Origin: Candidatus Enterousia sp.
Lineage (GTDB): Bacteria; Pseudomonadota; Alphaproteobacteria; Rs-D84
NCBI GenBank assembly: GCA_045606425.1
Contig: JAZURV010000004.1
Span: 120,987-184,986, forward strand
Length of the DNA: 64,000 nucleotides
Reading direction: 5' to 3'
The notes beneath the pieces are model-generated. The model was not told the origin of the DNA. It did not search any database and saw nothing but the letters and a program-made list of their open reading frames with translations. Position 1 is the first letter of the stretch, and each line of letters opens with the position of its first letter. This document shows positions 9,020 to 47,517 of this stretch, one piece after another. Position numbers and translations under genes: made by a program.

Positions 9020-9334
9020 CTATTCAATATTTGCGATTGCGTTTTTATTGACTTCGACAACGACGCCTTTGGCGATTTCCATTTCAATGGTTTTTTCATT
9101 TACTTTTTTCACAGTACCATAAATACCGGCAGCCAACACACGATTGCCAACCTTTATACTGTCTAACATTTTTTGATATTCAGCCATACGCTTTTTATTT
9201 GGTCGTATCATAAAGAAATACAATATTGCCATAATAATAACACAATATAAAATCATACCCCACATGCCGCCCTGTTGCTGTGCGATTGGTGCAGATTGTG
9301 TTGCCTGATTTACAACTTCAACTGTTTCATTCAT
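9020..9334 (-). CDS. yajC: Preprotein translocase subunit YajC
   Basis: 104 aa with a single TM helix and the YajC C-terminal motif (GNRVLAAGIYGTVKKVNEKTIEMEIAKGV). Located upstream of secDF. Confidence 0.85.
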   Translation of the reverse strand: MNETVEVVNQATQSAPIAQQQGGMWGMILYCVIIMAILYFFMIRPNKKRMAEYQKMLDSIKVGNRVLAAGIYGTVKKVNEKTIEMEIAKGVVVEVNKNAIANIE

Positions 9335-9495
9335 GAAAAATCTCCTTTTTTATAGGGGAATATTAGTAAAAAAAAGAGAATAAGTAAAGCACCAATTTCC
9401 ATTCACACGAATATAAATACATATTATTTATTTTTATTCTTTTATTAAACTGAACGGCAGGCCATATTGTATGTTTTTAATTTGCATTATGTACA

Positions 9496-9527
9496 AAAAC
9501 ACCCCTGAAACAGGGGTGTTTTTTTCC
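9496..9527. terminator. Rho-independent terminator (bidirectional hairpin)
   Basis: aaaaacacccctgaaacaggggtgttttttt: a GC-rich 8-bp stem flanked by A-run and T-run, immediately downstream of the 9545..10966 gene on the minus strand. Confidence 0.7.
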
Positions 9528-9544
9528 CAAAGGAAGGGAACTCT

Positions 9545-10966
9545 TTAATTGCCACTTGGTTTGACAAATCTCCAGCCTTTAAACGTTTTACCTGCATCGT
9601 TTGGCAATGGCGCAGAAGGCGTCACAATATTATCACCTATATCAACATATGAATATGTCGCATTATTTTCAATCGGTTCAAAATCGTAACCTTCTGGAAT
9701 ACTCAACACACCCAGCCAATTGATTGTAATGGCACGTTTGGTCCAATGCGCGTACAAAACCGGCGATTCAACGGTTTTATCCCACGTTTTACCGGCTATT
9801 GGCGAACCGGTACCCGAATAATATTGATTTCCACCAGTAGCCGCATCCCAATATCCAACAAATCTGTATCCTCTACGAGTAGGCATCGAACCCATCGCTG
9901 GCAAAGCGCTGCCAAATTCCATCCTGTCTGTGTATGTTGTGATACCTTGCCATGTACCACCGTTACCATCAAATGTCACATCATAATATCTTGCCTTACA
10001 ATACCGGGGCGAAGAACGATATTGAAACAACAAAGAACGATCGTCTGATACCCCCCCAGCCATAAGAGTCTTACATGCAGCAAGACATTCCGACAATATT
10101 GTCGAAGAACTGGTAGTTCCTATATTAACCCACGCAGAAGTCATCGCCAAATTTTGATATGTATGTGCACTATCCTCAGTTTGGGTTGGTACATCAATAT
10201 ATCCCGTTATATTACAGAAACAATTTTGATTTGACCCCGTCGTAAAGGTTGCGTCTGGCGCCAACAATTTTTCGGAATTCGTACCAACTGCTGCACCACC
10301 GTAAAGAATACCGCTGTCACCAAAATCAACCGCCCAATACTCTTTGTGGTCGCTAGCCATAGCCGAATGTAATGTCGCACCATTTGCAGAAGGTGTCCCA
10401 GAAGAACTGGTCCACGACGAAGAAACGGCACCATGGTTATATATCGCCTCTTGTATATCTGTTGTCAACGCATAGCCCGCTGCACAACCAGATGTCCAAC
10501 ACATATTTACACCATTATAATAGCGCCCCCCAGACACAAATCCAGTACCGTGCGTCGCAATGTCAGAATCAGTACAATCGCGATAACAATAGAAAGAAGA
10601 CACAGACCCTTCATCAGATTTCGTATACGGACTTGGACAGTCTGTCCTAATTTGATCTGTTAAACCATACCCTGCAGCAGCCGTCCCAGGACAATAAGAT
10701 CCAGATGGACACACAGCTGTCTCATAACTTCTTTTTTTCAAATAATATCCTGGCAAAACCTCATAATACGCAGACGCAGTGACATTTCCACTGCTTGTCC
10801 CTATATGATCTTCTGTCGCCGCACCAATATAATTCGTGGATTTACCATTAGTAGGTTTCATATACCCACTGCCAGGGAAGGTATTCGTATCTACAACTTC
10901 ATCAGCCGCAAAGGCACCACCTATGCCCGCAATTGCCATTACTGATATCAACAATATTTTTTTCAT
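9545..10966 (-). CDS. Secreted Cys-rich surface protein with C-terminal Listeria-Bacteroides (Flg_new) repeat
   Basis: Signal peptide MKKILLISVMAIAGIGGAFA. It has multiple CxxGxYC Cys-rich modules and a C-terminal YDVTFDGNGG...GYRFVGYW...VLYAHW motif typical of the Listeria-Bacteroides repeat. Confidence 0.6.
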   Translation of the reverse strand: MKKILLISVMAIAGIGGAFAADEVVDTNTFPGSGYMKPTNGKSTNYIGAATEDHIGTSSGNVTASAYYEVLPGYYLKKRSYETAVCPSGSYCPGTAAAGYGLTDQIRTDCPSPYTKSDEGSVSSFYCYRDCTDSDIATHGTGFVSGGRYYNGVNMCWTSGCAAGYALTTDIQEAIYNHGAVSSSWTSSSGTPSANGATLHSAMASDHKEYWAVDFGDSGILYGGAAVGTNSEKLLAPDATFTTGSNQNCFCNITGYIDVPTQTEDSAHTYQNLAMTSAWVNIGTTSSSTILSECLAACKTLMAGGVSDDRSLLFQYRSSPRYCKARYYDVTFDGNGGTWQGITTYTDRMEFGSALPAMGSMPTRRGYRFVGYWDAATGGNQYYSGTGSPIAGKTWDKTVESPVLYAHWTKRAITINWLGVLSIPEGYDFEPIENNATYSYVDIGDNIVTPSAPLPNDAGKTFKGWRFVKPSGN

Positions 10967-11067
10967 GCTGCCCCTTCCTTTTTTATGTTGTTAAAAATTC
11001 CTATGGTTAAAGTGTATCAAAAACCTAGGTTTATGGACCACCCTGTTTGATGAAAAATGAAAAATAA

Positions 11068-11100
11068 AAAATCCCAGAAATCTGGGAAAAAATTTTTTGA
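11068..11100 (-). terminator. Rho-independent terminator downstream of mutL (minus strand)
   Basis: Hairpin tcccag-aaat-ctggga followed on the minus strand by ttttttattttt. Confidence 0.55.
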
Positions 11101-11179
11101 AATTTTTGAAAAATAATGGTTGCAATAAACCTAGGTTTTTGGGTACAGGTCAACACCCCGAATTTCTGGGAAATTTCGA

Positions 11180-12937
11180 TTAAATCCTTTCAAACATTGC
11201 GTCCAGTTCTGATATTGGAATAACCTTGTAAACTGGGCGACCATGATTACATTCACCGCCCCGTTCCGTGCGTTCAATATCACGAAGCAGCGCGTCCATT
11301 TCCGCCATGTTTAATTTGCGACCCGCGCGCACAGAATGATGACATGCATAATTTGCCAATTTTAAATGTAATTTTTCCTGTATACGTGAAGAATGACCGT
11401 ATGCACGCACTTCGTCTGCGATTTCATGGAAACATTTTTCCCAGTTCAAATCCCAATCAGATGGCTTTTCAAATATTGCTATTGCATCATCACCAAATGA
11501 ATCTATCACCAACCCACATTGTTTCAAATCGTCCCTGATAACCAACACAGATATGGCATCTTCACTTTTTAATTTAACAACTATCGGTGCCAAAAGCGGC
11601 TGTGTTTTTATTTCGTGCTTTCTTAATTTTTCATATGTAATGCGTTCGTGCGCAGCATGTTGGTCAATTATAACAAAACCCGCCCTGTTTTCCGCCAATA
11701 TATATTTGTTATTTAATTGTCCAATAACGCGTCCAAGTGGTAAATCAAATGCGTCTGGTTCAAATACCGTTTCGATTTTGTCCGGGGCGGTGTCCGGTTT
11801 TTGATTATTAAATGTTGGTGATGCAACAAAATTACGCGCAAAAGAATTATCTGAATGTGACGGCATAACCGGCGCAGAATAAAAACTGGTCTGGGTTGGT
11901 GCCAATCTGAATTCCGTATCGTCACCATCATTGTTTTGCACAACCGCGTCCGTGGCAACATTCTGATTCAGTGTTTTCGCCAACACATCACGCAAAGTCT
12001 TTATTATAAACGCGCGCACATGCGTCGGTTCCAGAAAATGCACCTCAGTCTTGGCGGGCGAAACATTCACATCAACATATTGTGGCGGCAATTCCAGATA
12101 CAGCGCACACAGCGGAAATTCCCGCGCATGCATTACATCCATATACGCCGCGCGCAGGGCGGCAACCAAAACTTTATCCTTTACCGGGCGATTGTTCACA
12201 AACAAATATTGGTCAACACTGGACGCACGACGCAATGTTGGGTGGGAAATAAATCCATGAATTCGCATCTGGCCCGATGAAGAGGTCGCATCAACTGGCA
12301 ACATTAAATCACGCACATCTTCGCCCATAACAGAAATTATGCGTTCCAACAAATCCTGATTCTTTGGGAAACGCCATTTGTCATTTAAAACGAACCCGAC
12401 ATCTGTACGCGCCATCGCCAATCTTTTCACAATGTCCAATATCGCCAACATTTCTGATTTATCAGAATGTAAAAACTTTAACCGCGCTGGTGTTTTTGCA
12501 AATAAATTAGCGACACGAATTCGCGTACCACTTTCCCAGGCTGACGGTTTAATTTCGCCAGTATTTGCATTCAACATCAAACCGTTTTCTGCGCCATCTT
12601 GGGCGGTGTCAATATTCATATCAGACACAGATGCGATTGACGGTAATGCTTCACCACGGAAACCCATAAAATTTATATTCAACAAATCATCATCTGGCAA
12701 TTTAGATGTTGCGTGTCGCAAAATACAATTTGCCAAATCGTCCGCGTTCATGCCGTGACCATTGTCAATTACAGAAATCAGTGTTCGTCCACCATCAACA
12801 ACATCAACAATAATTTGGTCAGCCCCCGCGTCCAGCGCATTTTCCACCAATTCTTTAACCACACTGGCGGGCCTTTCGACCACTTCGCCCGCAGCGATTT
12901 GGTTGATTAAAAAATCTGGCAACACGCGAACAGGCAT
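11180..12937 (-). CDS. mutL: DNA mismatch repair protein MutL
   Basis: 585 aa with an N-terminal GHKL ATPase (ELVENALDAGA, DNGHGM) and a C-terminal dimerization domain. Confidence 0.92.
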   Translation of the reverse strand: MPVRVLPDFLINQIAAGEVVERPASVVKELVENALDAGADQIIVDVVDGGRTLISVIDNGHGMNADDLANCILRHATSKLPDDDLLNINFMGFRGEALPSIASVSDMNIDTAQDGAENGLMLNANTGEIKPSAWESGTRIRVANLFAKTPARLKFLHSDKSEMLAILDIVKRLAMARTDVGFVLNDKWRFPKNQDLLERIISVMGEDVRDLMLPVDATSSSGQMRIHGFISHPTLRRASSVDQYLFVNNRPVKDKVLVAALRAAYMDVMHAREFPLCALYLELPPQYVDVNVSPAKTEVHFLEPTHVRAFIIKTLRDVLAKTLNQNVATDAVVQNNDGDDTEFRLAPTQTSFYSAPVMPSHSDNSFARNFVASPTFNNQKPDTAPDKIETVFEPDAFDLPLGRVIGQLNNKYILAENRAGFVIIDQHAAHERITYEKLRKHEIKTQPLLAPIVVKLKSEDAISVLVIRDDLKQCGLVIDSFGDDAIAIFEKPSDWDLNWEKCFHEIADEVRAYGHSSRIQEKLHLKLANYACHHSVRAGRKLNMAEMDALLRDIERTERGGECNHGRPVYKVIPISELDAMFERI

Positions 12938-33530: not shown

Positions 33531-33560
33531 AAAAACGCCGCTCAACCGAGCGGTGTTTTT
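33531..33560. terminator. Bidirectional rho-independent terminator
   Basis: aaaaacgccgctcaaccgagcggtgttttt between convergent secB and paralog-A ORF. Confidence 0.7.
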
Positions 33561-33933
33561 ATTCGCAATATTTATTTTTATAAACTTCTATTGCTGTATC
33601 AAACCAAAAATATGGTTGATTTCGTGCACATAATTCCCGAACAAAAGAATCATAAATATCTGGTCTAAAAACCAAAAAATCACAAAAATACGCATTTACC
33701 AAATTCCATTCTGACGCAAACAGAAAAAGTTCGTCTGTGAATCCGTCCGCATAATCTTCCCTGTCCATAAAAAAGGTATCGCCATCTGTAAAGAAATAAA
33801 TCGTACCGCGCCTGTCCAGTGCACCAGATTGTGATATCATAAAAAACAACATTTTTGATGAAATGTCTTTTCTTACCGCACCTGGTGTTGTTCTTTGGAA
33901 ATTGACGCGCTTTATACAAATTGAATTTTCCAT
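33559..33933 (-). CDS. Hypothetical 124-aa protein, paralog A (about 80% identical to the 37197..37571 product)
   Basis: The probable start is the internal Met (MENSICIK) with an aggga SD. The frame is conserved between the two diverged copies. No recognised domain. Confidence 0.6.
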   Translation of the reverse strand: MENSICIKRVNFQRTTPGAVRKDISSKMLFFMISQSGALDRRGTIYFFTDGDTFFMDREDYADGFTDELFLFASEWNLVNAYFCDFLVFRPDIYDSFVRELCARNQPYFWFDTAIEVYKNKYCE

Positions 33934-34150
33934 ATTATCCCTGTCTTTTGTAAAAAACAAAGACCACTAAAAAATAAGTCGTCGGGGGTTAGAACAGCAT
34001 AGTAGTGAATGCTCCACCAAAGTGGCACCCCGCCCATAAGTCAGGGATATGGCACAAAAGCACCATAAACAGATTACGATGCTTATTGCACCGCACTACT
34101 ACGGGATGTTCTAAATCCCTAACCCAATTCCCATTGGATTCATGTATTAT
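33934..34150 (-). promoter_or_regulatory. Structured RNA leader/attenuator element, copy A
   Basis: About 200 nt upstream of paralog A. The 5' end carries the dyad CCAATTCCCATTGG (34124-34137). A multi-stem core includes P1 (GUAGUAGUG/CACUACUAU) and a CCAC-UUUG-GUGG hairpin. A weak terminator-like hairpin with U-run lies immediately before the start codon. It is homologous to copy B (36960..37196) with compensatory P1 changes. Confidence 0.6.
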
Positions 34151-34154
34151 TATA

Positions 34155-34205
34155 ATTGTGATTATTCAAAAAAGCAACTAAAAACGGCGCATCTGCGCCG
34201 TTCAA
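34155..34205 (-). terminator. Rho-independent terminator downstream of yebC
   Basis: Minus-strand hairpin aacggcgcagatgcgccgtt followed by tttagttgctttttt. Confidence 0.55.
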
Positions 34206-36959: not shown

Positions 36960-37196
36960 AATAATCCAATTTATAATAATATATGAATCCAATGGGAATT
37001 GGGTTTGGGATTTAGAACATCTCTCTATCTAGGCGGTGCATAAAGCATCGTAATCCGCTTATGGTGCTTTTGTGCCATATTCCCTGACTTATGGTCGGGG
37101 TGCCACTTCGGTGGAGCATGCCTAGATATGCTGTTCTAACCCCCGACCGCTTGTTTTTTTCAGCGGTCTTTGTTTTTTACAAAAGACAGGGATAAT
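36960..37196 (+). promoter_or_regulatory. Structured RNA leader/attenuator element, copy B
   Basis: Dyad CCAATGGGAATTGG (36989-37002). P1 is AUCUAGGC (37027-37034) pairing with GCCUAGAU (37120-37127), enclosing sub-hairpins including CCAC-UUCG-GUGG. A terminator hairpin gaccgc..gcggtc (37145-37168) plus T-run ends 16 nt before the ATG at 37197. Confidence 0.65.
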
Positions 37197-37571
37197 ATGG
37201 AAAATTCAATTTGTATAAAGGGCGTCAATTTCCAAAGAACAACACCAGGTGCGGTAAGAAACGATATTTCATCAAAAATGTTGTTTTTTATGATATCACA
37301 ATCTGGTGCACTGGACAGGCGCGGTACGATTTATTTCTTTACGCCAACCGGCGCTTACTTTATGGAACTGGAAGATTATACAGCCGAATTCAAAGATGAA
37401 CTTTTTATATTCACATCAGAATGGAATTTGGTAAATGCATATTTTTGTGATTTTTTGATTATAAGACCAGATGTTTATGATTCTTTTATTCACGAATTAT
37501 GTGCAAAAAACATTCGTGATTTTTGGTTTGATACGGCAATAGAAATTTATCGAAATAAATATTGCGAATAA
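37197..37571 (+). CDS. Hypothetical 124-aa protein, paralog B
   Basis: MENSICIKGVNFQRTTPG...; about 80% identical to paralog A. It is oriented away from the central yebC-ruvA-mnmE segment, mirroring copy A. Confidence 0.6.
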   Translation: MENSICIKGVNFQRTTPGAVRNDISSKMLFFMISQSGALDRRGTIYFFTPTGAYFMELEDYTAEFKDELFIFTSEWNLVNAYFCDFLIIRPDVYDSFIHELCAKNIRDFWFDTAIEIYRNKYCE

Positions 37572-37600
37572 AAAAACGCCCAAACGGGCGTTTCTTTATT
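37571..37600. terminator. Bidirectional rho-independent terminator
   Basis: aaaaaacgcccaaacgggcgtttctttatt between paralog B and the convergent fadD-like gene 1. Confidence 0.7.
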
Positions 37601-39176
37601 CTTTTCTGTCTGGATATTTACCATTTATCAAATTCTTGCGCACTTCGTGGTGTTTAATCTTTTGAGTGCTGGTCATCGGCAAATCTTCCGTTGTCATCGC
37701 AAAATGGGTCACCCATTTATAGGATGCAACTTTTTTATTTTGTTCTGCGATTTCTTTGGAAAGTTTATCCATTGTCATATCTTTGTCGACACTGAAAACC
37801 CCATATGAAACAGTCTTGTCCCCAACCTTGTGTTCAAAGACAGCAACATTTTTAACGCCTTCGATTTCCAGATAAAGTGCTTCCAATTCATCAGGATAAA
37901 CATTTTTACCGCTGTCCAAAACAATTACTTGTTTTTTACGGCCGGCAAAGTGCAATTCGCCATTTTTATCCATGTACATCATGTCCCCAGTATTAAACCA
38001 ACCGTCTTGGTCAAATACAGTCGCATTGACTTCATCATTATTCAGATATCCATTAAACACCTGATGTCCACGCAACCATAAAACACCAACGCCATTTTCA
38101 TCTTTGTCGCGAATTTCGCATTCATTATTAGATGTTGGCGCCCCAACTGAATAAGCCAATCTTTTATTTGTTGGTTTGGAAATACAGATTGGTCCAACAG
38201 TTTCAGTCAAACCGTATCCCTGAATAAATGCCAGACCAAGCGATTCATAGAAATTTTCAACCTCTGGCTTGGTCGCGGCACCACCTGCAATCAGCAACTT
38301 TGCGCGTCCACCAAAAACATTTAACAAAGGTTCCTGAACTTTACGGACAAAGAAATCCAATCCCATATCTTTCAATGTTTTTTGGTTTCTTAAAATAAAT
38401 GATGCGACACGCCATTTATTTTGTTCTTTCATTGTTGTTATAATCTTGTTACGGAACAATTCCCAAACACGTGGAACGGCAGGTATAACATGCGGTTGGA
38501 ATTTCTTGAAATCGTCCAAGATATATTTTGGATTTATTGTTGGCTGCAAAACGAGTGACGCACCATAATGAATTGTTGCCAAAATACCGATTGCAAAACC
38601 GAATATATGATACAGTGGCAAAAATCCATACATAACATCACCAGAATGGAAATATTCAGACATATCTTCCAATGAATTTGCGCATTCTGTTAAATTAAAG
38701 TGTGTCAGTGGCACAACCTTTGGTGTTCCGGTTGACCCAGATGTAAACGACAGCGTCGCAACATCTGTGGATTCAGACGGATATGGGCGCAAATCATAAT
38801 CTATGTCGCCATCTTTTTTTGTTATGTCATAGAATTTAAATTTGTCTGTTTTATAAAAGAACGATGGTTCTGCGCACACAAATTTGCACCCCACGATTTC
38901 ACACATTTTATCATATTCGATTGGTGTTAAATTTGTATCCAGCATCAAAACCGTTCCACCCAAATACCATACCGCAAACAAAGTCAATGGGAACTGGGGC
39001 AAATTATGCGATAAAACACCAACAATATCGCCATGTTTGATACCCATTTTATTTAATGTTGCTGCACGGGCGCGAACCTGGTCTATAAATTGTGCATAGG
39101 TCACATTTTCACGAACCAGAAACAAATTTTCCGGCCATTGGTTCACTGCGTTTTCTAATTTTTGATACATATTCAT
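37596..39176 (-). CDS. AMP-dependent synthetase/ligase (long-chain acyl-CoA/acyl-ACP synthetase, FadD-like), copy 1
   Basis: AMP-binding motifs TSGSTGTPKVV, YGLTE, GWFNTGD, GRKKQVIVLDSGKNVYPDELE and C-terminal LPMTSTQK. The probable start is MNMYQKL at 39176; the ORF-track N-terminus extends 12 aa further to 39212. Confidence 0.8.
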   Translation of the reverse strand: MNMYQKLENAVNQWPENLFLVRENVTYAQFIDQVRARAATLNKMGIKHGDIVGVLSHNLPQFPLTLFAVWYLGGTVLMLDTNLTPIEYDKMCEIVGCKFVCAEPSFFYKTDKFKFYDITKKDGDIDYDLRPYPSESTDVATLSFTSGSTGTPKVVPLTHFNLTECANSLEDMSEYFHSGDVMYGFLPLYHIFGFAIGILATIHYGASLVLQPTINPKYILDDFKKFQPHVIPAVPRVWELFRNKIITTMKEQNKWRVASFILRNQKTLKDMGLDFFVRKVQEPLLNVFGGRAKLLIAGGAATKPEVENFYESLGLAFIQGYGLTETVGPICISKPTNKRLAYSVGAPTSNNECEIRDKDENGVGVLWLRGHQVFNGYLNNDEVNATVFDQDGWFNTGDMMYMDKNGELHFAGRKKQVIVLDSGKNVYPDELEALYLEIEGVKNVAVFEHKVGDKTVSYGVFSVDKDMTMDKLSKEIAEQNKKVASYKWVTHFAMTTEDLPMTSTQKIKHHEVRKNLINGKYPDRKE

Positions 39177-39330
39177 TTTAATATCCTTTTTGTTTACTTT
39201 TTCGCTCGACACACAATAAAAAAAATCAAAAAAATCTTGTGAACTTCAATTTTTTAAGCTTTTTTTAATTGTGTGTTCTCGTATTCGCTCGCTTGGCACA
39301 ATTTGTGCCGGCTGCGCGGATAACGCAACG

Positions 39331-39368: not shown

Positions 39369-40949
39369 TTATTCATGTCTGTTTGTATATTTACCGTCTA
39401 TCAACCATTGACGAACAACATGATGTTTAATTTTTTGAGTACTGGTCACCGGTAAATCGTCGGTTGTCATCGCAAAATGTGTCACCCATTTATAGGACGC
39501 AACTTTTTTATTTTTTTCTGCGACTGCGGCGGCCAATTTATCCATTGTCATACCTTCTTCGACACTGAATACGCCGTATGCGACGGTTTTGTCATTTACT
39601 TCATGTTCAAAAACCGCAACACTTTTTACACCATCGATTTCGATAAACAAGGCTTCCAATTCATCAGGATAAACATTTTTACCACTGTCCAAAACAATTA
39701 CTTGTTTTTTACGACCAGCAAAATGCAATTCGCCGTTTTTATCCTGCCATACTAAATCACCAGTACAGAACCAGCCATCTTTGTCAAACGATTCTTTATT
39801 CGCAGCATCATTATTTGCGTACCCGCCAAAGATTTGATTGCCACGAACCCACAGCATACCAATACCATCTTCGTCTTGGTTGCGAATTTGGATTTCAGTA
39901 TCACCCATCGGCGCACCAAATGCGTATGGCACACGTTTTTTCAGCGGGCGCGAACAACAGATTGGCCCCACAGTTTCGGTCATACCATAACCCTGAACGA
40001 ATGCCATTCCCAGTTGAGTATAGAATTTTTCAACCTCTGGTTTGGTCGCGGCACCACCTGCAACCAACAGACGCGCGCGTCCACCAAAAATTGCGCGAAT
40101 TTGATTCAAAACTTTATCAACCAGTTTTGACATACCCATTGCACGCAACAATTTTTGATTATTCATTACAAACGATACCAATCCCCATTTCTTTTTTGCC
40201 TTGATACCATCGATAATTTTCTTGCGGAAAATTTCCCACAACTTTGGCACCGCAGGAATAACCTGGGGTTTATATTGTGCAAAATCCGCCATAATTGCAT
40301 TTGGATTTATTGTTGATTGCAACAAAATTCCCATACCAAAATGCAACGGTGCCAAAAATCCAACTGCGAATCCAAACACATGGTACAATGGTAAAAAAGC
40401 ATAGAACATTTCACCAGGGCGCAACCACTGATTCAAATATTCCAAATTATCAGAACAAGAAACCAGATTAAAGTGTGTCAACGGCACAACCTTTGGCGTT
40501 CCAGTTGACCCCGATGTAAACGACAATGTTGCAATATCGCTGTCTTTCAATGGGTATGGCTTTAAAGATTCATCGTTTTTTTCGTCTTTCGTTTCAATAT
40601 CAAAAAACTTAAAGCCCTTTGCATCATAAAAGAAAGATTTTTCTGCACATACAATTTTACAACCTGTTATTTCGGTCATATTATCATATTCTGCAGAGGT
40701 TAAATTCGTATCCAACAACAAAACCGTTCCGCCCAGGTACCATATAGCGAACAAAGTTATTGGAAACTGTGGCAAATTATGCGCCAACAAACCAACAACA
40801 TCGCCCGGTTTTACACCCGCATCACGCAAAGTTGTCGCACGTGCCTGAACCAATTTCACTAATTCTTTAAATGTGACATTTTCACGAACCAAAAACACAG
40901 TTTCTGGGTTTCTTTCCACATTTTTTTCTAATAACTGATACATATTCAT
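39369..40949 (-). CDS. AMP-dependent synthetase/ligase (FadD-like), copy 2
   Basis: 526 aa with the same motif set (TSGSTGTPKVV, YGMTE, GWFCTGD, LPVTSTQK). Its ATG overlaps the TAA of copy 3 by 1 nt (TAATG). Confidence 0.8.
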   Translation of the reverse strand: MNMYQLLEKNVERNPETVFLVRENVTFKELVKLVQARATTLRDAGVKPGDVVGLLAHNLPQFPITLFAIWYLGGTVLLLDTNLTSAEYDNMTEITGCKIVCAEKSFFYDAKGFKFFDIETKDEKNDESLKPYPLKDSDIATLSFTSGSTGTPKVVPLTHFNLVSCSDNLEYLNQWLRPGEMFYAFLPLYHVFGFAVGFLAPLHFGMGILLQSTINPNAIMADFAQYKPQVIPAVPKLWEIFRKKIIDGIKAKKKWGLVSFVMNNQKLLRAMGMSKLVDKVLNQIRAIFGGRARLLVAGGAATKPEVEKFYTQLGMAFVQGYGMTETVGPICCSRPLKKRVPYAFGAPMGDTEIQIRNQDEDGIGMLWVRGNQIFGGYANNDAANKESFDKDGWFCTGDLVWQDKNGELHFAGRKKQVIVLDSGKNVYPDELEALFIEIDGVKSVAVFEHEVNDKTVAYGVFSVEEGMTMDKLAAAVAEKNKKVASYKWVTHFAMTTDDLPVTSTQKIKHHVVRQWLIDGKYTNRHE

Positions 40950-42547
40950 TATAAACGCTCCCGTAATTTACTGGTATTTTCTGGATATTTGCCATCGATA
41001 AGATTCTGGCGCACTTCATGATGTTTAACCTTTTGTGTACTGGTCATTGGCAAATCATCAGTAGTCATCGCAAAATGGGTCACCCATTTATACGGCGCAA
41101 CCTTACGATTAGCCAGCGCAACTTGCGCCGCCAGTTTCAAAAAACTCATCCCCTTGTTCACCTGGAATACAGCATATGTGACGGTTTTATTTTTTTCTTT
41201 GTGTTCAAAAACTGCGACATTTTTTACGCCATCTATTTCCATGAACAATGCTTCCAATTCATCCGGATAAACATTTTTACCACTGTCCAGAACGATAACT
41301 TGTTTTTTGCGTCCTGCAAAATGATACTGTTTATTTTTATCCAGATAGACTAAATCACCGGTATTAAACCAACCGTCTTTGTCGAATGATTCAGAATTTG
41401 CCTCTGCATTATTCAAATATCCATTAAAGACATTTGGTCCGCGCACCCACAGTGTTCCAATACCTTTTTCATTGGCATCACGAATTGTGCATTCTGAACA
41501 ACCAATTGGTGTTCCAAACGCGAACGGCACACGATGTTTCGACGGACGCGAACAACAGAATGGCCCAACCGTTTCAGTCATACCATATCCCTGAACAAAG
41601 GTGATTCCCAATGATTCATAGAATTTTTCAACCTCTGGTTTTGTCGCGGCGCCGCCCGCAATCATCAAATTCACACGCCCACCAAAGATGTCACGCAACG
41701 GTTTTTGTACCTTTTTAACCAGTTTACCCAACCCAATTGCACGCAAAAACTTTTGCCGACGCAATACGAAAGACACAAACCACCACATATGTTTTTCTTT
41801 GACCCCGCTGATGATTTTATTACGGAACACTTCGTAAAGGCGCGGCACCGCCGGAATACAGTGTGGTTTATAAACCCTAAAATCTTCCAATATATTTTTT
41901 GGATTTACGGTTGGCTGTAATAAAATTCCCATGTGGAAATACATAGGTGCCAAAATACCACCTGCAAAACCGAATATATGATACAGCGGCAAAAAACCAT
42001 ACATTATTTCGTTTTTATGAATCCATTGTCCCATATCTGCGTAATAATCAGACGAACTTTTCAGATTTCCATGCGTCAGTGGCACAACCTTTGGATTGCC
42101 AGTCGAACCTGATGTAAAGGACAGCGTTGCAATATCATCAGATTTCAAATCTGCAGGTTTCACATTGGCATCGGCTGCATCATCAGTGCTTTGTATATCA
42201 AAGAACTTAAATCCCCTGGCCTTGTAAAAGAATGATTTTTCGGCGCACACGAATTTGCACCCCACCCTTTTGGTCATATTATCATATTCGAACGGTGTTA
42301 AATTTGTATCCAACAACAAAACCGTACCACCCAAATACCATATCGCGAAAAGTGTCAATGGAAATTCTGGAATATTATGCGCCAACAAACCAACGACATC
42401 GCCCTGCTTTACCCCGGCGTTATGCAAAGTCGTCGCGCGTGCATGAATCAAATCCAGCGCCATTTTAAATGTGATTTTTTCGCGTACCAAAAACAAAGCA
42501 TCTGGCGATTCTTTCGCCACTTGCTTGAACACTTGATACATATTCAT
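40949..42547 (-). CDS. AMP-dependent synthetase/ligase (FadD-like), copy 3
   Basis: 532 aa with the same conserved motifs (TSGSTGNPKVV, YGMTE, GWFNTGD, LPMTSTQK). Confidence 0.8.
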   Translation of the reverse strand: MNMYQVFKQVAKESPDALFLVREKITFKMALDLIHARATTLHNAGVKQGDVVGLLAHNIPEFPLTLFAIWYLGGTVLLLDTNLTPFEYDNMTKRVGCKFVCAEKSFFYKARGFKFFDIQSTDDAADANVKPADLKSDDIATLSFTSGSTGNPKVVPLTHGNLKSSSDYYADMGQWIHKNEIMYGFLPLYHIFGFAGGILAPMYFHMGILLQPTVNPKNILEDFRVYKPHCIPAVPRLYEVFRNKIISGVKEKHMWWFVSFVLRRQKFLRAIGLGKLVKKVQKPLRDIFGGRVNLMIAGGAATKPEVEKFYESLGITFVQGYGMTETVGPFCCSRPSKHRVPFAFGTPIGCSECTIRDANEKGIGTLWVRGPNVFNGYLNNAEANSESFDKDGWFNTGDLVYLDKNKQYHFAGRKKQVIVLDSGKNVYPDELEALFMEIDGVKNVAVFEHKEKNKTVTYAVFQVNKGMSFLKLAAQVALANRKVAPYKWVTHFAMTTDDLPMTSTQKVKHHEVRQNLIDGKYPENTSKLRERL

Positions 42548-43392: not shown

Positions 43393-44085
43393 TTATTCTG
43401 GTGCGTTAAAGGTCCAACCGGTAAAGATTTTTCCATTAATATGTTGGGCCTTTAGCGGTGTATGTATATCCCCGCCATAGGTGACGTTGCCGGCGTTGTT
43501 TGCGGTTATGTCCGCCGCATCAGCATGATCCCAAGTGATTGAAATAGTATTCGCAGTGCAAACCGACGAACCCGCAGGCGCAGAATACCCCGTCGCACAG
43601 GCACTTATACCCTGGTCGATGTTTTCGTTAAAACTATACGTTCCACCAACAGAATAACTATTCGCGGGGCATTGTGTGCACGCATCCACGTCGGCAGGCA
43701 AGTAATACCCGACTGAACAAGTATGTGTATTTGGGACAAATTCTGCCACCAGATTACCATTATAAAGTAAATCCCTGGAACAACCCTTTTCTACATTTTC
43801 GACAATAGGTAAAGTATAAACAATTCCTTGGTCAATATTTTGGTTAAATCTAAAATTTCCACCACTGCAAGTGTGTCCAGATAAACAAGATGTACACCCG
43901 TCAATATTTGCGGGCAAATAATAACCGGACGAACAATTATACAGCGTCGGTTCGAACAGAGCGGTCAGTGTTGCTGGGTTATAATCAAAAGAGCAACCGT
44001 TCGCGGTATTTTCTGAAAATATTTCAGCGTATGCAAAGTTTGCATATGATATAAAAACGCCCAAGATAAAAACTAATTTTTTCAT
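43393..44085 (-). CDS. Secreted Cys-rich protein with two ephrin-receptor-like (GCC2_GCC3-type) repeats
   Basis: Signal peptide; an internal duplication of a roughly 75-aa module, CSSGYYLPANIDGCTSCLSGHTCSGGNFRFNQNIDQGI and CSVGYYLPADVDACTQCPANSYSVGGTYSFNENIDQGI; C-terminal GKIFTGWTF. Confidence 0.55.
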   Translation of the reverse strand: MKKLVFILGVFISYANFAYAEIFSENTANGCSFDYNPATLTALFEPTLYNCSSGYYLPANIDGCTSCLSGHTCSGGNFRFNQNIDQGIVYTLPIVENVEKGCSRDLLYNGNLVAEFVPNTHTCSVGYYLPADVDACTQCPANSYSVGGTYSFNENIDQGISACATGYSAPAGSSVCTANTISITWDHADAADITANNAGNVTYGGDIHTPLKAQHINGKIFTGWTFNAPE

Positions 44086-44091
44086 CTTTTT

Positions 44092-44802
44092 TTATTCGGA
44101 CAAAGACCAACTTTCTTCCACCGGTTCCGCCAACGGGTAATAACAAGTGACTGGTTGACCGGCGGCATATCTTTCCGCCAACCACGTATTAAATTCTGTT
44201 TGATTTGCAAATCTGCTATCTGTGACATTAAATTGAATTGTATTATTTTCACTTGCACCTAAATAGAATGTGTTATTTTTGACCAGTCCCCATTTCTGAT
44301 AATTCGAATAATAATTGCAAATAGGGACATCTTGTTTTATTGAACGTTGAACATTGCTTGTTAAGGTCCCTGAGATACAATAAAAACTATCTGGGCCAAA
44401 CCAGTTTTCTCTCCAGCTTTCGTTTCCTTTTAGTATTAATACTCCGACACGACGTGTAATTTTTTCACTGGAAGGATTATATTCGTCAGCTACGAAATCT
44501 TCCCCACTGCCCAATGCGCGCAAAACAGTATCGCCCAGTTGATAAAATACTGGTTCTATGGGATTTGTCGGGGTTGGCGTCCCAGATTGTGACCAAGTGC
44601 CGGTTATAACACCATAATTCCATCCGACAAATGTATAACCGTATTTTGTTGGCGACGTTTGCGGAATTATCAGATTGCCACCTGATTCACAGGTGCTGGT
44701 TGAATATGTTGTGTCTCCTACTTTCCAATTTACATTTATTGTTTCGGCAAATACGATATTGCATATTAAAACCACACCAAAAAACACGAAAAACTTCTTC
44801 AT
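44092..44802 (-). CDS. Secreted protein with Listeria-Bacteroides-repeat-like motif
   Basis: The probable start is MKKFFVFFGVVLICNIVFA (ATG at 44800-44802; the ORF-track extension uses TTG). It contains YGYTFVGWNY. Confidence 0.55.
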   Translation of the reverse strand: MKKFFVFFGVVLICNIVFAETINVNWKVGDTTYSTSTCESGGNLIIPQTSPTKYGYTFVGWNYGVITGTWSQSGTPTPTNPIEPVFYQLGDTVLRALGSGEDFVADEYNPSSEKITRRVGVLILKGNESWRENWFGPDSFYCISGTLTSNVQRSIKQDVPICNYYSNYQKWGLVKNNTFYLGASENNTIQFNVTDSRFANQTEFNTWLAERYAAGQPVTCYYPLAEPVEESWSLSE

Positions 44803-44814
44803 CCTTGTCCCCCG

Positions 44815-45045
44815 TTTTTGCAAACAAAAAACCGCCAAAGGAATTTTAGGCGGTCGGGGAGTTGGTAAATCACATTGTTATAGATTTCCGCGCCTTACGG
44901 TAAGCGGCTCCCCAACCTTGTTAGTTAGGGATGATAACGGTGCAAAAAACACCAAAAATATCAAATTAACGATGCATTTGCACCGAACAATGTGGGCTAC
45001 CACAGCCCCGAACCCAATCCCTTGGATTCATTTGTATCATATCAT
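44815..45045 (-). promoter_or_regulatory. Structured RNA leader / sRNA-like element, copy C
   Basis: The 5' end AUGAAUCCAAGGGAUUGGGUUCGGGG (dyad CCAATCCCTTGG 45014-45025) and the 3' end CCCCGACCGCC-loop-GGCGGU + UUUUUGUUUG terminator (44831-44856) match elements A and B; the middle differs. It ends about 12 nt upstream of the 44092..44802 gene. Confidence 0.5.
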
Positions 45046-45066
45046 AAAAAAACTGTTTATACAAGA

Positions 45067-47517
45067 CTAATCACCGACACGCGCCAAATCATCAAATTCA
45101 TGATATTTTGCGCCAACACTTTCGCGGTATTCGTATGCCGCAACTTTGTCTGTGCTGTATTGACCAAATAATTCACGCACCTTTTGCACACTGTTATCTA
45201 TCATTTCTTGTGCGATTTCATCACTATATTCTATCAATTCAGGATTGCCGTTTTTCAGTTGCAAAAACTGTATTATTGGCGTTATTGAAACATCTTTCAT
45301 TTTTAATGGAAAACCATTATTTTGCATCATGAATGCTTCCAATGGCAACTGTGGCATAGTGCCCTCCATCAACTGTTTTTTTGTTGGTGGGTTGCCGGTT
45401 TTTATATCCATTACAACACCGTCCCATACAATATCAGCGCGCGCCCGAACATTGCGCCCCATAATATTTACAGACCCCAATATTTCTTTGTATTCAATCG
45501 ATTTGTTTTGAAAGAATTCTTCAACAAATGGCGCAATTTCACAAAACCGTTTATGCCAAAAATAAAACAATATTGAATCAGACGGCAAAACCTGTTTTGC
45601 CCGTATATCCATTTCATCTATCAGTTTTTGTGCATTGAAATCACGCGCGTTTTCAATCACATCATGTACCAAAATCCCAAAATTACGCGCATCTGGCAAA
45701 ACCCAATAATCGTCCAGTTTTTTCAATCGCAAAATATGTTTTACATAAAACGCATACGGGTTATGAATCAGCAATTCTAAATCTGTCACAAAAACATCAC
45801 TTTTATCGATTGGTGGTGTTGGCGGCGAATAATCCAGTGGTTTGTACGGTACATCATCTATCGCCCGTACAGATTTCAACATTTCGTTATCAACGAATAT
45901 ATCACCAACCGCGACGCGAACACGGGAAATGAATCGTGATTCAGTGGTCAGTGTTCCGCCTGATTGTTTTGAACGCAACCAATATACTTCATTTCCACAC
46001 GACAAATTCATAAAATCCAGTGCCATCAAAGATACCTTGCGATTTGGTGACGGCAGTCCTATTTTCGCGGCAACATCACGCGGCAACCATGCGTTTTCAT
46101 ACCCCAGCGACGGAAACATTCCTTCGTTCAATCCAGTCAGTATTATTACATCTGCGCCCTGCATACGCGATTCTATTGTACCCAAAACACAAACATCACA
46201 ATCTTCGTTTTTAACCGGACGAATTGAAACACCACCAATTGCATCGGCAATAAATGCGCGTGCATCATAAACATTTAACACAATATCGTTTGCACATAAA
46301 ATATCTGCGGTTTCTTTTATCGCATTCCAAATTGGAATATCACTGTCATTTTCAATTGTAAATGTTGGCTGAAAAACAGTTTCACCATGTTCATCAACAA
46401 ACGCAACCAACATATTAAACAAATTGTAATTATGTTGTGCATATAATTTTTCAAATTCTTTTTGATTATTTTCAATCCAATCATCAAACAAATTCAATAT
46501 CGCGCGCCCCAAATCTGTCATTGTCCCAGATATACCAGACGAAAAATCTGCATCTATACCCGCACGCGTCATTTCTGATTTTATTCGCTGATTCGCGGCG
46601 GCATCAGGCGTAATTATCAACACAGATTTATTTTCATAAACCGCGCGCTGTGCAATCTGTGTCGCGGTCAGTGCCTCTTCACTTTCACGGACGCATTCTA
46701 TAATTTTACAGTTATTCAATTTTTTATCAGCATGCGCCCCAGTATTTCCAAACGCGATATTCATTGTATCGATTTGGCTTTCGCCGACATCTATGGTCTG
46801 CACATCGTCCGCATTTAACCCCAAACGATTCAGAAACAAATATTCGCTGTGATACGGGTTAGTGTCCAATTCAAAATCTTCTATTTCGCCCGATATTTTT
46901 CCAGACAAAATAATTTTTCCATTTGATAATTTTGCGACGCATTCCATTAAATCAGCCGTTGCCGGAACAGACGCGGTTGACCCACACACAATCACGCAAT
47001 CATATTTATTCAGGTGATTTTTCCATGCACGAATGTCAGCATTTCTTTTCTGGGTTGTCGTCAATCGGTCATTTGGTAATTGCTTTAAAATATCCAGTAT
47101 GCGCGCTTTATTTTGAAAATGCGTTGCATATTTATCGTCTATCAGTGACAACCAATCTATGTCGGCAATCTGAATACCTTCGTTTTCCAGATAATCCTGC
47201 ATACGAACGAAATCACGGGCAATCGGCAATGCAGTCGCAATATTTCCAACATTCGCGTCCATCGACAAAAGCCGCGCCAAAATAATAATTCTTTCACGAT
47301 TTGATATTGTACCGGGATATGTTTCATCTGTTTCTTCGTCGTCCACCCCATCACCCAGCGGAACAAGATTTGGCAAAATAATCGCATGCCCTGTTTTTTC
47401 AACAATAAATCTTTCCATGCTTCTGATTGCGCGACGCGACGGCAAAAAAATCAAGACGCGCGAAAAATCATTTTTATATTCCGCAATCATATCCCACAAC
47501 GCGTCCAAAATACGCAT
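45067..47517 (-). CDS. addB: Double-strand break repair protein AddB
   Basis: AddB-like N-terminus (MRILDALWDMI...VLIFLPSRRA) and C-terminal PD-(D/E)xK nuclease (DIKTG). The ORF track extends to 47724, but that would overlap engB; the start is probably near 47517. No addA partner is in the window. Confidence 0.7.
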   Translation of the reverse strand: MRILDALWDMIAEYKNDFSRVLIFLPSRRAIRSMERFIVEKTGHAIILPNLVPLGDGVDDEETDETYPGTISNRERIIILARLLSMDANVGNIATALPIARDFVRMQDYLENEGIQIADIDWLSLIDDKYATHFQNKARILDILKQLPNDRLTTTQKRNADIRAWKNHLNKYDCVIVCGSTASVPATADLMECVAKLSNGKIILSGKISGEIEDFELDTNPYHSEYLFLNRLGLNADDVQTIDVGESQIDTMNIAFGNTGAHADKKLNNCKIIECVRESEEALTATQIAQRAVYENKSVLIITPDAAANQRIKSEMTRAGIDADFSSGISGTMTDLGRAILNLFDDWIENNQKEFEKLYAQHNYNLFNMLVAFVDEHGETVFQPTFTIENDSDIPIWNAIKETADILCANDIVLNVYDARAFIADAIGGVSIRPVKNEDCDVCVLGTIESRMQGADVIILTGLNEGMFPSLGYENAWLPRDVAAKIGLPSPNRKVSLMALDFMNLSCGNEVYWLRSKQSGGTLTTESRFISRVRVAVGDIFVDNEMLKSVRAIDDVPYKPLDYSPPTPPIDKSDVFVTDLELLIHNPYAFYVKHILRLKKLDDYWVLPDARNFGILVHDVIENARDFNAQKLIDEMDIRAKQVLPSDSILFYFWHKRFCEIAPFVEEFFQNKSIEYKEILGSVNIMGRNVRARADIVWDGVVMDIKTGNPPTKKQLMEGTMPQLPLEAFMMQNNGFPLKMKDVSITPIIQFLQLKNGNPELIEYSDEIAQEMIDNSVQKVRELFGQYSTDKVAAYEYRESVGAKYHEFDDLARVGD

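Follow-up and report, generated by a model that had tools for sequence, protein, structure and literature searches.

InlB B-repeats (PF09479 or Flg_new, TIGR02543; structure 2y5p), also known as Listeria–Bacteroides repeats, occur in exported proteins such as the internalins and the surface proteins of Bacteroides. They are among the closest described systems to three genes, here called A, B and C, in a 64,000-nucleotide stretch of a Candidatus Enterousia genome (contig JAZURV010000004.1, positions 120,987 to 184,986; hereafter the window). Genes C and B are gene 1 and gene 2 of a two-gene cassette behind a leader RNA. The A protein has one B-repeat above the Pfam cut-off, and A, B and C share a shorter unit, I-x-I-x-W ... 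P ... G-x-x-F-x-G-W, that aligns with part of the repeat structure. Unlike described B-repeats, the units of B, of C and of the A C-terminus are cut after GW-x-F and are used singly at an extreme N- or C-terminus rather than in a tandem spacer array. Unlike the internalins, A, B and C lack both a leucine-rich-repeat (LRR) internalin domain and any anchoring module of the LPXTG or GW type.

Other parts of the system recall other proteins. With their short C-x2-C and G-Y-Y modules and predicted beta-hairpin, disulfide-ladder character, A and B resemble the repeats of PF07699 (Ephrin_rec_like), PF24634 (DUF7631) and the tumour necrosis factor receptor (TNFR) family PF00020; the B-type module differs in being longer (about 55–60 residues), in having its own lead-in (A-x-F-x-P-N) and tail (GGT-Y-x-F-N-E-x3-QGI), and in having been found only in alphaproteobacteria of the order Rs-D84. 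Phage tail-fibre, receptor-binding and decoration proteins (PHROG 6782, evolved Dit, Hoc-like) are approached by the tip domains of gene 1, which have homologues, single or in tandem, in long open reading frames (ORFs) on viral contigs; the copies keep a constant N-terminal adaptor and exchange the tip, in the manner of phage receptor-binding proteins. Here, unlike in phages, the tips sit on small cellular proteins that appear to be Sec-exported, carry an InlB-type unit and are paired with a Cys-rich protein whose family lacks viral relatives. Like Msp2/P44 of Anaplasma, the variable surface proteins of Mycoplasma and the BspA-like LRR families, the cassettes are present in numerous divergent copies within a very small genome, vary in the middle but not at the ends, and presumably act where the cell meets another. 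In contrast to Msp2/P44-type families, there is no evidence here of a single expression site, pseudogene donors or phase-variable repeats, and each cassette copy has a structured, promoter-proximal leader and a terminator of its own. The leader resembles those of riboswitches and attenuators in being a conserved, covarying multi-helix RNA with alternative pairings followed by a terminator; it differs in having no match in Rfam 15 and in being tied to cassettes for putative surface proteins and to small ORFs instead of to a metabolic pathway. The ingredients (B-repeats, Cys-rich ladders, phage-like binding modules, multigene surface families and terminator-type leaders) are known in kind, but none of the libraries searched describes the gene-1 tips Cdom and Ldom, the gene-2 domain Hdom, the A-type domain, the two-gene cassette or the leader RNA, and our literature searches returned no description of any of them.

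Candidatus Enterousia and its order, Rs-D84, occur widely in the guts of animals, and we know of no account of how Rs-D84 bacteria find or hold a partner. In one study, Enterousia metagenome-assembled genomes (MAGs) measured 0.75–1.0 Mb, with about 820–1,200 genes, and lacked biosynthetic and respiratory pathways (PMC12306168); published genomes of Rs-D84 are mostly smaller than 1 Mb. Genomes of Rs-D84 are without standard uptake transporters and code for many hypothetical membrane-bound proteins; the group is regarded as dependent on other cells, and an obligately symbiotic or parasitic life on them has been put forward for the order (PMC12306168).

We find that A, B and C have a modular architecture, and that C and B belong to a conserved operon present in many copies per genome, with a structured, covarying leader and a tip that has homologues on viral contigs. 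The best reading of these sequences is that the three products are Sec-exported, disulfide-stabilised modular proteins, probably drawn from a lineage-specific toolkit of interchangeable modules. The original prediction, made from the window sequence alone, had treated them as one family with three members. Modules and a terminal unit are indeed shared, but the proteins are not one paralogous family: A is a singleton and C–B is a two-gene cassette. The parts, named by gene, are as follows.

Gene A, 9545..10966, minus strand: ORF call, 473 amino acids, 12 cysteines
Gene A, aa 57–122, 10601..10798, minus strand: single Cys module, homologous to the B modules (hhalign)
Gene A, aa 328–410, 9737..9985, minus strand: full Listeria–Bacteroides repeat (InlB B-repeat, Flg_new, PF09479)
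Gene A, aa 411–467, 9566..9736, minus strand: truncated terminal Flg_new-like unit ending in GKTFKGWRF (unit profile match and hhalign)
Gene B (cassette gene 2), 43393..44085, minus strand: ORF call, 230 amino acids, 11 cysteines
Gene B, aa 38–88, 43822..43974, minus strand: Cys module 1 (domain-profile boundaries)
Gene B, aa 108–161, 43603..43764, minus strand: Cys module 2 (domain-profile boundaries)
Gene B, aa 163–177, minus strand: half module following module 2
Gene B, aa 175–226, 43408..43563, minus strand: truncated terminal Flg_new unit (domain-profile boundaries)
Gene C (cassette gene 1), 44092..44802, minus strand: ORF call, 236 amino acids, 5 cysteines
Gene C, aa 19–63, 44614..44748, minus strand: truncated Flg_new unit after the signal peptide
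Gene C, aa 65–236, 44095..44610, minus strand: tip domain Cdom, which also occurs on viral contigs

The three ORFs lie where they had been predicted, all on the minus strand. The likely start of C is the ATG at 44802, preceded by the Shine–Dalgarno sequence GGGGGA, and not an upstream TTG; this gives the recorded form of 236 amino acids. As had also been predicted, each N-terminus looks like a Sec signal peptide when read by eye, with MKK, 15–17 hydrophobic residues and an A-x-A-type site; one of the five cysteines of C falls within it. In A, the signal peptide is followed by an N-terminal Cys-rich region (aa 21–325), the full Flg_new repeat and the truncated terminal unit. A is a single-gene version of the system: it has a lone Cys module and a larger Cys-rich domain, and it combines a full B-repeat with the shared terminal unit. 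A domain-profile scan of every window ORF of at least 70 amino acids found A-, B- and C-type modules in these three proteins and nowhere else. Flg_new was the sole family returned for them by Pfam and NCBIfam annotation searches, and none of the three matches a PHROG or a PADLOC model. Lack of recurrence in relatives had been named in advance as evidence against the original prediction. The proteins instead recur widely, with 222 relatives of B, 96 of C and 102 of the N-terminal part of A (the last by a full HMMER search at E ≤ 1e-3); those of the A region include giant proteins with 5–9 tandem copies.

The motif G(Y/K)xF(V/T)GW(x)(Y/F), from which the kinship of the three proteins had first been proposed, is present in all of them: as G366-YRFVGYW and G459-KTFKGWRF in A, G218-KIFTGWTF in B and G55-YTFVGWNY in C. 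By sequence comparison, it marks a truncated B-repeat unit of about 45 residues that corresponds to roughly positions 1–42 of the 65-position Flg_new model and ends right after G-W-x-F. The repeat that had been claimed for one protein is borne out in A, in which Flg_new scores 35.6 bits against a cut-off of 27 (E 1e-8, aa 328–388, model positions 1–54). C reaches 21.6 bits, below the cut-off, over model positions 4–41, and Pfam gives no Flg_new match in B at E ≤ 1. A therefore qualifies for PF09479 by the gathering cut-off, whereas B and C neither reach it nor cover the full 65 positions. Flg_new matches occur in 14 of 35 relatives in the B family, 20 of 34 in the C family and all 25 gene-1 proteins of the Ldom type. 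The gene-1 profile matches residues 5–44 of the 74-residue B-repeat structure 2y5p (E 1.2e-5), which argues that the unit is a truncated derivative, homologous to the repeat but not a full one. For the C-terminal units of the A and B families, hhalign gives a probability of 99.9 (E 6e-33); they are clearly the same module. Together, the Flg_new matches in A (above the cut-off) and C (below it), the A–B alignment and the 2y5p match argue that the shared motif is not due to chance. The unit lies at the extreme C-terminus in A and B and directly behind the signal peptide in C. Pairwise similarity among the three proteins is confined to about 45–50 residues around the motif, to which A and B add a shared Cys-containing stretch. 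Because C has no Cys module and the likeness goes no further, we describe A, B and C as module-sharing proteins rather than paralogues.

The Cys modules themselves were predicted with the spacing C-x2-GYY-x7-C-x2-C-x5-GG, which is slightly off: both modules of B read C-x2-GYY-x7-C-x2-C-x5-(C/S)-x-GG, and A has one divergent copy, PGYY-x10-C-x5-C-x-G (PGYYL...C86PSGSYC92PG...C110P..Y). The A-family module aligns with B-family module 2 at hhalign probability 98.8 (E 4.3e-17) and with module 1 at 96.7 (E 4.4e-10). Relatives of B contain 1–4 modules, mostly 2, with the consensus A-x-F-x-P-N-x-[YH]-x-C-x2-G-Y-Y-L-P-A-x4-C-x2-C-P-x4-C-x-G-G-T-[YF]-x-F-N-E-x3-Q-G-I and with Cys positions that are invariant or nearly so. 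All 12 cysteines of A are invariant among 27 relatives, including those of the larger domain downstream of the module. This conservation, together with the signal-peptide-like N-termini, supports export and disulfide formation, and with them the earlier description of the proteins as secreted and disulfide-rich with Listeria–Bacteroides sequence. Codon 145 of B (43651..43653) encodes Ser in place of a near-invariant Cys (CPANSYSVGG versus CPANSYCVGG in relatives), so that B has an odd number of cysteines; this could reflect true variation, decay of this copy or an error in the MAG consensus.

The cassette was delimited by a locus scan that used a single search pattern and one genome per species and returned 46 B-type loci. 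Gene 1 lies directly upstream of gene 2 on the same strand in 39 of these; the gap between the two has a median of about 1 nt, and in the window 6 nt lie between the C stop codon and the start of B. Six of the remaining loci either abut the end of a contig or show an unusual ORF upstream, and in one (L009) both genes are in one ORF. The gene-1 protein of locus L001 is a full homologue of C (40% identity, E 5e-49). The Cdom tip is found in L001, L002 and the window; 27 loci have Ldom instead, and in 11 the domain is unclassified. Gene 2 ends in a 70-residue ‘ILHIG’ domain (Hdom) in 34 loci and in the truncated unit in 9. A conserved third gene is absent from the cassettes. Between paralogues in the same genome, DNA identity is 34–42% in the tip-coding region and about 51–64% in most of the leader, unit and gene 2.

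Copy number is high: at least 11 loci in RUG12675 and at least 9 in SRR873609_bin.15, with at least one further B paralogue (P0018) on the contig of the window itself. All 46 loci come from Candidatus Enterousia, rumen ‘RUG’ or Alphaproteobacteria MAGs. At the DNA level, housekeeping genes of the window share 83% identity with those of L037 (SRR873609_bin.15) and 74–79% with those of L016 (Ca. Enterousia sp.) and L050. The cassettes sit among such genes and have no phage genes close by: in the window, C is bounded by addB and B–xth, and yajC, mutL, leuS, ileS and mnmG are neighbours elsewhere. The yajC–mutL interval holds A in the window (9334..11180), a leader–gene-1–gene-2 cassette in L050 (3936–5724) and a gene-1–gene-2 cassette in L016 (1–1625). 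A and the cassette genes therefore replace one another at fixed sites, which suggests that this interval is a fixed insertion or replacement site for genes of these putative surface proteins.

The tip domains connect the cassette to viral contigs. Cdom occurs on 12 IMG/VR contigs, several times in a phage structural context: flanked by tail-protein genes (L058), followed by an endolysin gene (L054), fused to a tail-protein family (L056) or overlapping a tail-fibre PHROG (L059). Ldom is present on at least 164 viral-contig stretches, often in tandem; 8 long ORFs on viral contigs contain both domains, and one Ldom-bearing protein also has Hoc-like and Dit-like regions. The C-terminal domain of C is thus homologous to domains of proteins encoded in phage tail modules. 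C itself is not part of a virion or prophage, given its neighbours addB and B–xth and the lack of a PHROG match, and the B family has no relatives in IMG/VR. A likeness of Ldom and Cdom motifs to phage tail fibres found no support in deposited phage genomes, and its support is confined to the IMG/VR contigs. Matches of the AlphaFold2 (AF2) model of C to AB5 B-subunits and OB folds in the PDB had E values of about 1 on a low-confidence model and were rejected as meaningless. On one contig (L063:1-4401; IMGVR_UViG_3300028797_006173), a protein of more than 1,466 amino acids, followed by a birA-like gene, combines BspA-type LRR-like repeats (read from sequence), Ldom, an A-type Cys domain and the terminal unit (...GKIFRGWKFSKPSGN), in that order. 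This contig is probably an Enterousia-type chromosome filed as viral.

A structured RNA, called element C in the original prediction, had been placed before one of the three genes, and we confirm it upstream of C. Three copies were found in the window.

Leader RNA of the C–B operon, 44810..45046, minus strand: 237 nt (nhmmer, alignment, covariation)
Leader copy 2, 36971..37191, plus strand: precedes a 124-aa ORF at 37197..37571 (plus strand)
Leader copy 3, 33939..34155, minus strand: precedes a 124-aa ORF at 33559..33933 (minus strand)

The leader has a −10-like TATGAT/TATAAT box at its 5′ edge, a multi-helix core, and a terminator hairpin with a U-run just before the C ribosome-binding site. 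Iterated nhmmer searches place it (about 230 nt) upstream of gene 1 in nearly all cassette loci; in many of these, its DNA is 67–80% identical to that of the C leader, whereas the encoded proteins are about 40% identical. The RNAalifold consensus has 43 pairs, 24 with compensatory changes, and two long-range helices show covariation at every pair. Paired cells amount to 95.6%, compared with 80.9% in shuffled alignments (none of 500 reaches the observed value) and 32–49% when partners are slid. Four segments (CCCTGAC, GGTCGGGG, CCCCGACCGCC and GGCGGT followed by the U-run) are able to pair as 1:2, 2:3 or 3:4, which points to the logic of an attenuator or a riboswitch expression platform. At gathering score, Rfam 15 gives only tRNAs in the window, and nothing relevant at E ≤ 5 in 44700..45150. 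We regard the leader as a candidate new riboswitch or attenuator: a conserved, covarying RNA of this kind would be an orphan regulatory RNA with a well-defined regulon. The two leader-linked 124-aa ORFs of the window are paralogous (79% identical), have no signal peptide, match nothing in Pfam or PADLOC and have no homologue in the fetched loci, but they have this candidate regulator in common with the cassettes; in L013, the leader stands upstream of another signal-peptide protein. The region upstream of A was searched for the C leader and lacks it. Between mutL and A, a palindrome, AAACCTAGGTTT, occurs twice at about 11015..11140, flanking the mutL terminator hairpin at 11072..11087. It is unrelated to the C leader and may be either an operator or an inverted repeat within the A promoter region.

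What these proteins do is a separate matter. We give about an even chance to the proposal that A, B and C are regulated, diversified adhesin or recognition proteins that bind partner cells. The proteins would fold in the periplasm with structural disulfides and then arrive at the cell surface or in the medium. Variable tips would bind surface structures of the partner cell, probably glycans, with the Cys modules as a stiff stalk and the truncated B-repeat unit as a common connector or assembly piece. With its many divergent copies, a genome would have a repertoire of specificities, and the structured leader and terminator may gate transcription of each cassette by riboswitch-like attenuation. 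The cassette, of which one genome has at least 11 divergent copies, occupies an unusually large part of a small gene set; this makes it a prime candidate for the interaction machinery of these bacteria, and the kinship of its tips with phage-tail-module domains offers a testable route to the identity of the partner.

Several observations weigh against this proposal. A Sec signal in a diderm delivers a protein only to the periplasm, and beyond the Sec-type signal we identified no outer-membrane translocation or anchoring signal in A, B or C. Matches to the tips are limited to IMG/VR contigs, at least one of which (L063) looks cellular. Neither Cdom nor Ldom has a Pfam, PDB-sequence or own PHROG match, there being no PHROG family for Ldom itself, and tblastn searches with C, P0212 and two viral-contig homologues found no match in the deposited phage genomes of INPHARED. 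PDB and Pfam searches assign no fold to the Hdom and A-type domain profiles, and the AF2 model of C is poor (predicted local distance difference test (pLDDT) score of 61). The same leader precedes two ORFs without a signal peptide, so its regulon is not purely one of surface proteins. The joined ORF of L009 (4074-5771; 565 amino acids), which keeps its internal signal peptide, may be a true fusion or may reflect the loss of a stop codon or faulty assembly; with the internal signal retained, we do not rely on it as Rosetta-stone proof that the gene-1 and gene-2 products interact.

A more specific form of the adhesin proposal is possible, and we hold it only tentatively. It would see domesticated phage receptor-binding modules in a dispersed adhesin cassette, present in at least 11 copies per genome, with which the bacterium chooses partners as phages choose hosts. 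Each cassette would consist of an InlB-type adaptor with a swappable phage-like tip and a Cys-rich stalk protein, and each copy would be switched by its leader, all in a genome of about 1 Mb or smaller.

The single Sec-type signal and the lack of a recognizable surface-anchor or secretion motif would suit proteins that never leave the envelope: non-adhesive envelope or periplasmic proteins for substrate capture, scavenging or envelope structure. Such a role would also accord with the absence of standard uptake transporters and the many hypothetical membrane-bound proteins reported for Rs-D84 (PMC12306168). We nevertheless consider it unlikely. Tips shared with viral contigs, some of them in tail modules, together with InlB-type repeats, are typical of externally exposed binding proteins; the tips diverge strongly between paralogues; and in the giant protein the modules are combined with repeats that read as BspA-type LRRs.

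The original prediction had labelled the Cys modules ephrin-receptor-like/GCC2_GCC3 and, on that basis, eukaryote-like. If the repeats had been acquired from a eukaryote, the proteins would be effectors or adhesins that mimic or bind receptors of an animal host or a protist. The organism inhabits animal guts, and relatives of B give sub-threshold matches to PF07699 (10 of 35, best E 9.3e-4), TNFR_c6 (5 of 35) and NCD3G (6 of 35), with a further PF07699 match in 1 of 45 (E 0.0047). In a Foldseek search of the AF2 model of B (pLDDT 81), most of the leading PDB matches are eukaryotic Cys-rich domains (CaSR, ELAPOR1, a mastigoneme protein, p75NTR, EphA2/A4/B2 and DR4/5). The details do not carry this label. 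A, B and C have no PF07699 match even at E ≤ 1, and those in relatives are weak. DUF7631 is the commonest Pfam match in relatives (27 of 35, best E 1.4e-7, and 25 of 45, some with a precomputed PF24634 label), but B itself scores 14.5 bits where membership requires 27, over model positions 4–18 of 50, and the match in P0041, the one relative with coordinates, spans positions 3–19 only. Literature searches for DUF7631/PF24634 found no description. The Foldseek matches all have E ≥ 0.2 and template modelling (TM) scores of at most 0.22 (probability 0.6–0.75, local alignments of 57–70 residues), and the model has no significant structural match in the PDB or BFVD. Family profiles find no eukaryotic Cys-rich domain among PDB sequences; for the A, B, C and Hdom profiles, the InlB B-repeat is the only return.

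Small disulfide-stapled hairpin ladders can also arise convergently, and the tips that accompany the modules are related to viral-contig domains, not to eukaryotic proteins. The resemblance to TNFR and ephrin Cys-rich repeats is real at the level of fold class, that of a small disulfide-stapled hairpin ladder, and at that level only; membership in Ephrin_rec_like and eukaryotic descent are not supported, and we judge such an origin decidedly unlikely. Nor does anything point to an animal-host target: the family was found only in Rs-D84 or Enterousia-like MAGs, and partnered domains with homologues on viral contigs, some in phage tail modules, point instead to the binding of microbial surfaces. 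From the role first suggested, that of adhesins or host-interaction effectors, binding to or interaction with other cells fits the context. The attractive label of a eukaryote-like effector is thereby corrected, and the main interest of the locus lies in the cassette and its leader.

The homology of Cdom and Ldom to domains in or near tail modules on viral contigs could also mean that the genes are still phage in nature: remains of prophages, proteins that mask receptors or act as decoys to exclude superinfection, or some other defence against phages. This we find very improbable, as the cassettes lie between housekeeping genes with no phage genes nearby and have Sec-type signal peptides and a leader of their own, the B family is absent from IMG/VR, and A, B and C match neither PHROGs nor PADLOC. 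Least probable of all are secreted two-component toxins or bacteriocins, with gene 1 as the receptor-binding subunit, gene 2 as the Cys-rich toxic subunit and the small leader-controlled ORFs as immunity genes: the two-gene, polymorphic, multi-copy arrangement, the small, apparently secreted, Cys-rich products and the two 124-aa ORFs without a signal peptide behind the same leader would fit, but Pfam, NCBIfam and PADLOC show no toxin or immunity domain, the cassettes conserve no third gene, and the weak AB5 B-subunit matches of C carry no meaning.

Near the cassette, the window also contains three paralogous ORFs of about 530 amino acids on the minus strand (37596..39212, 39369..40949 and 40949..42547), of which the first and third look like acyl-CoA synthetases when read from sequence. 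All three intervals cross-match the equivalent region of L037 at about 70% DNA identity, a notable duplication for so small a genome.

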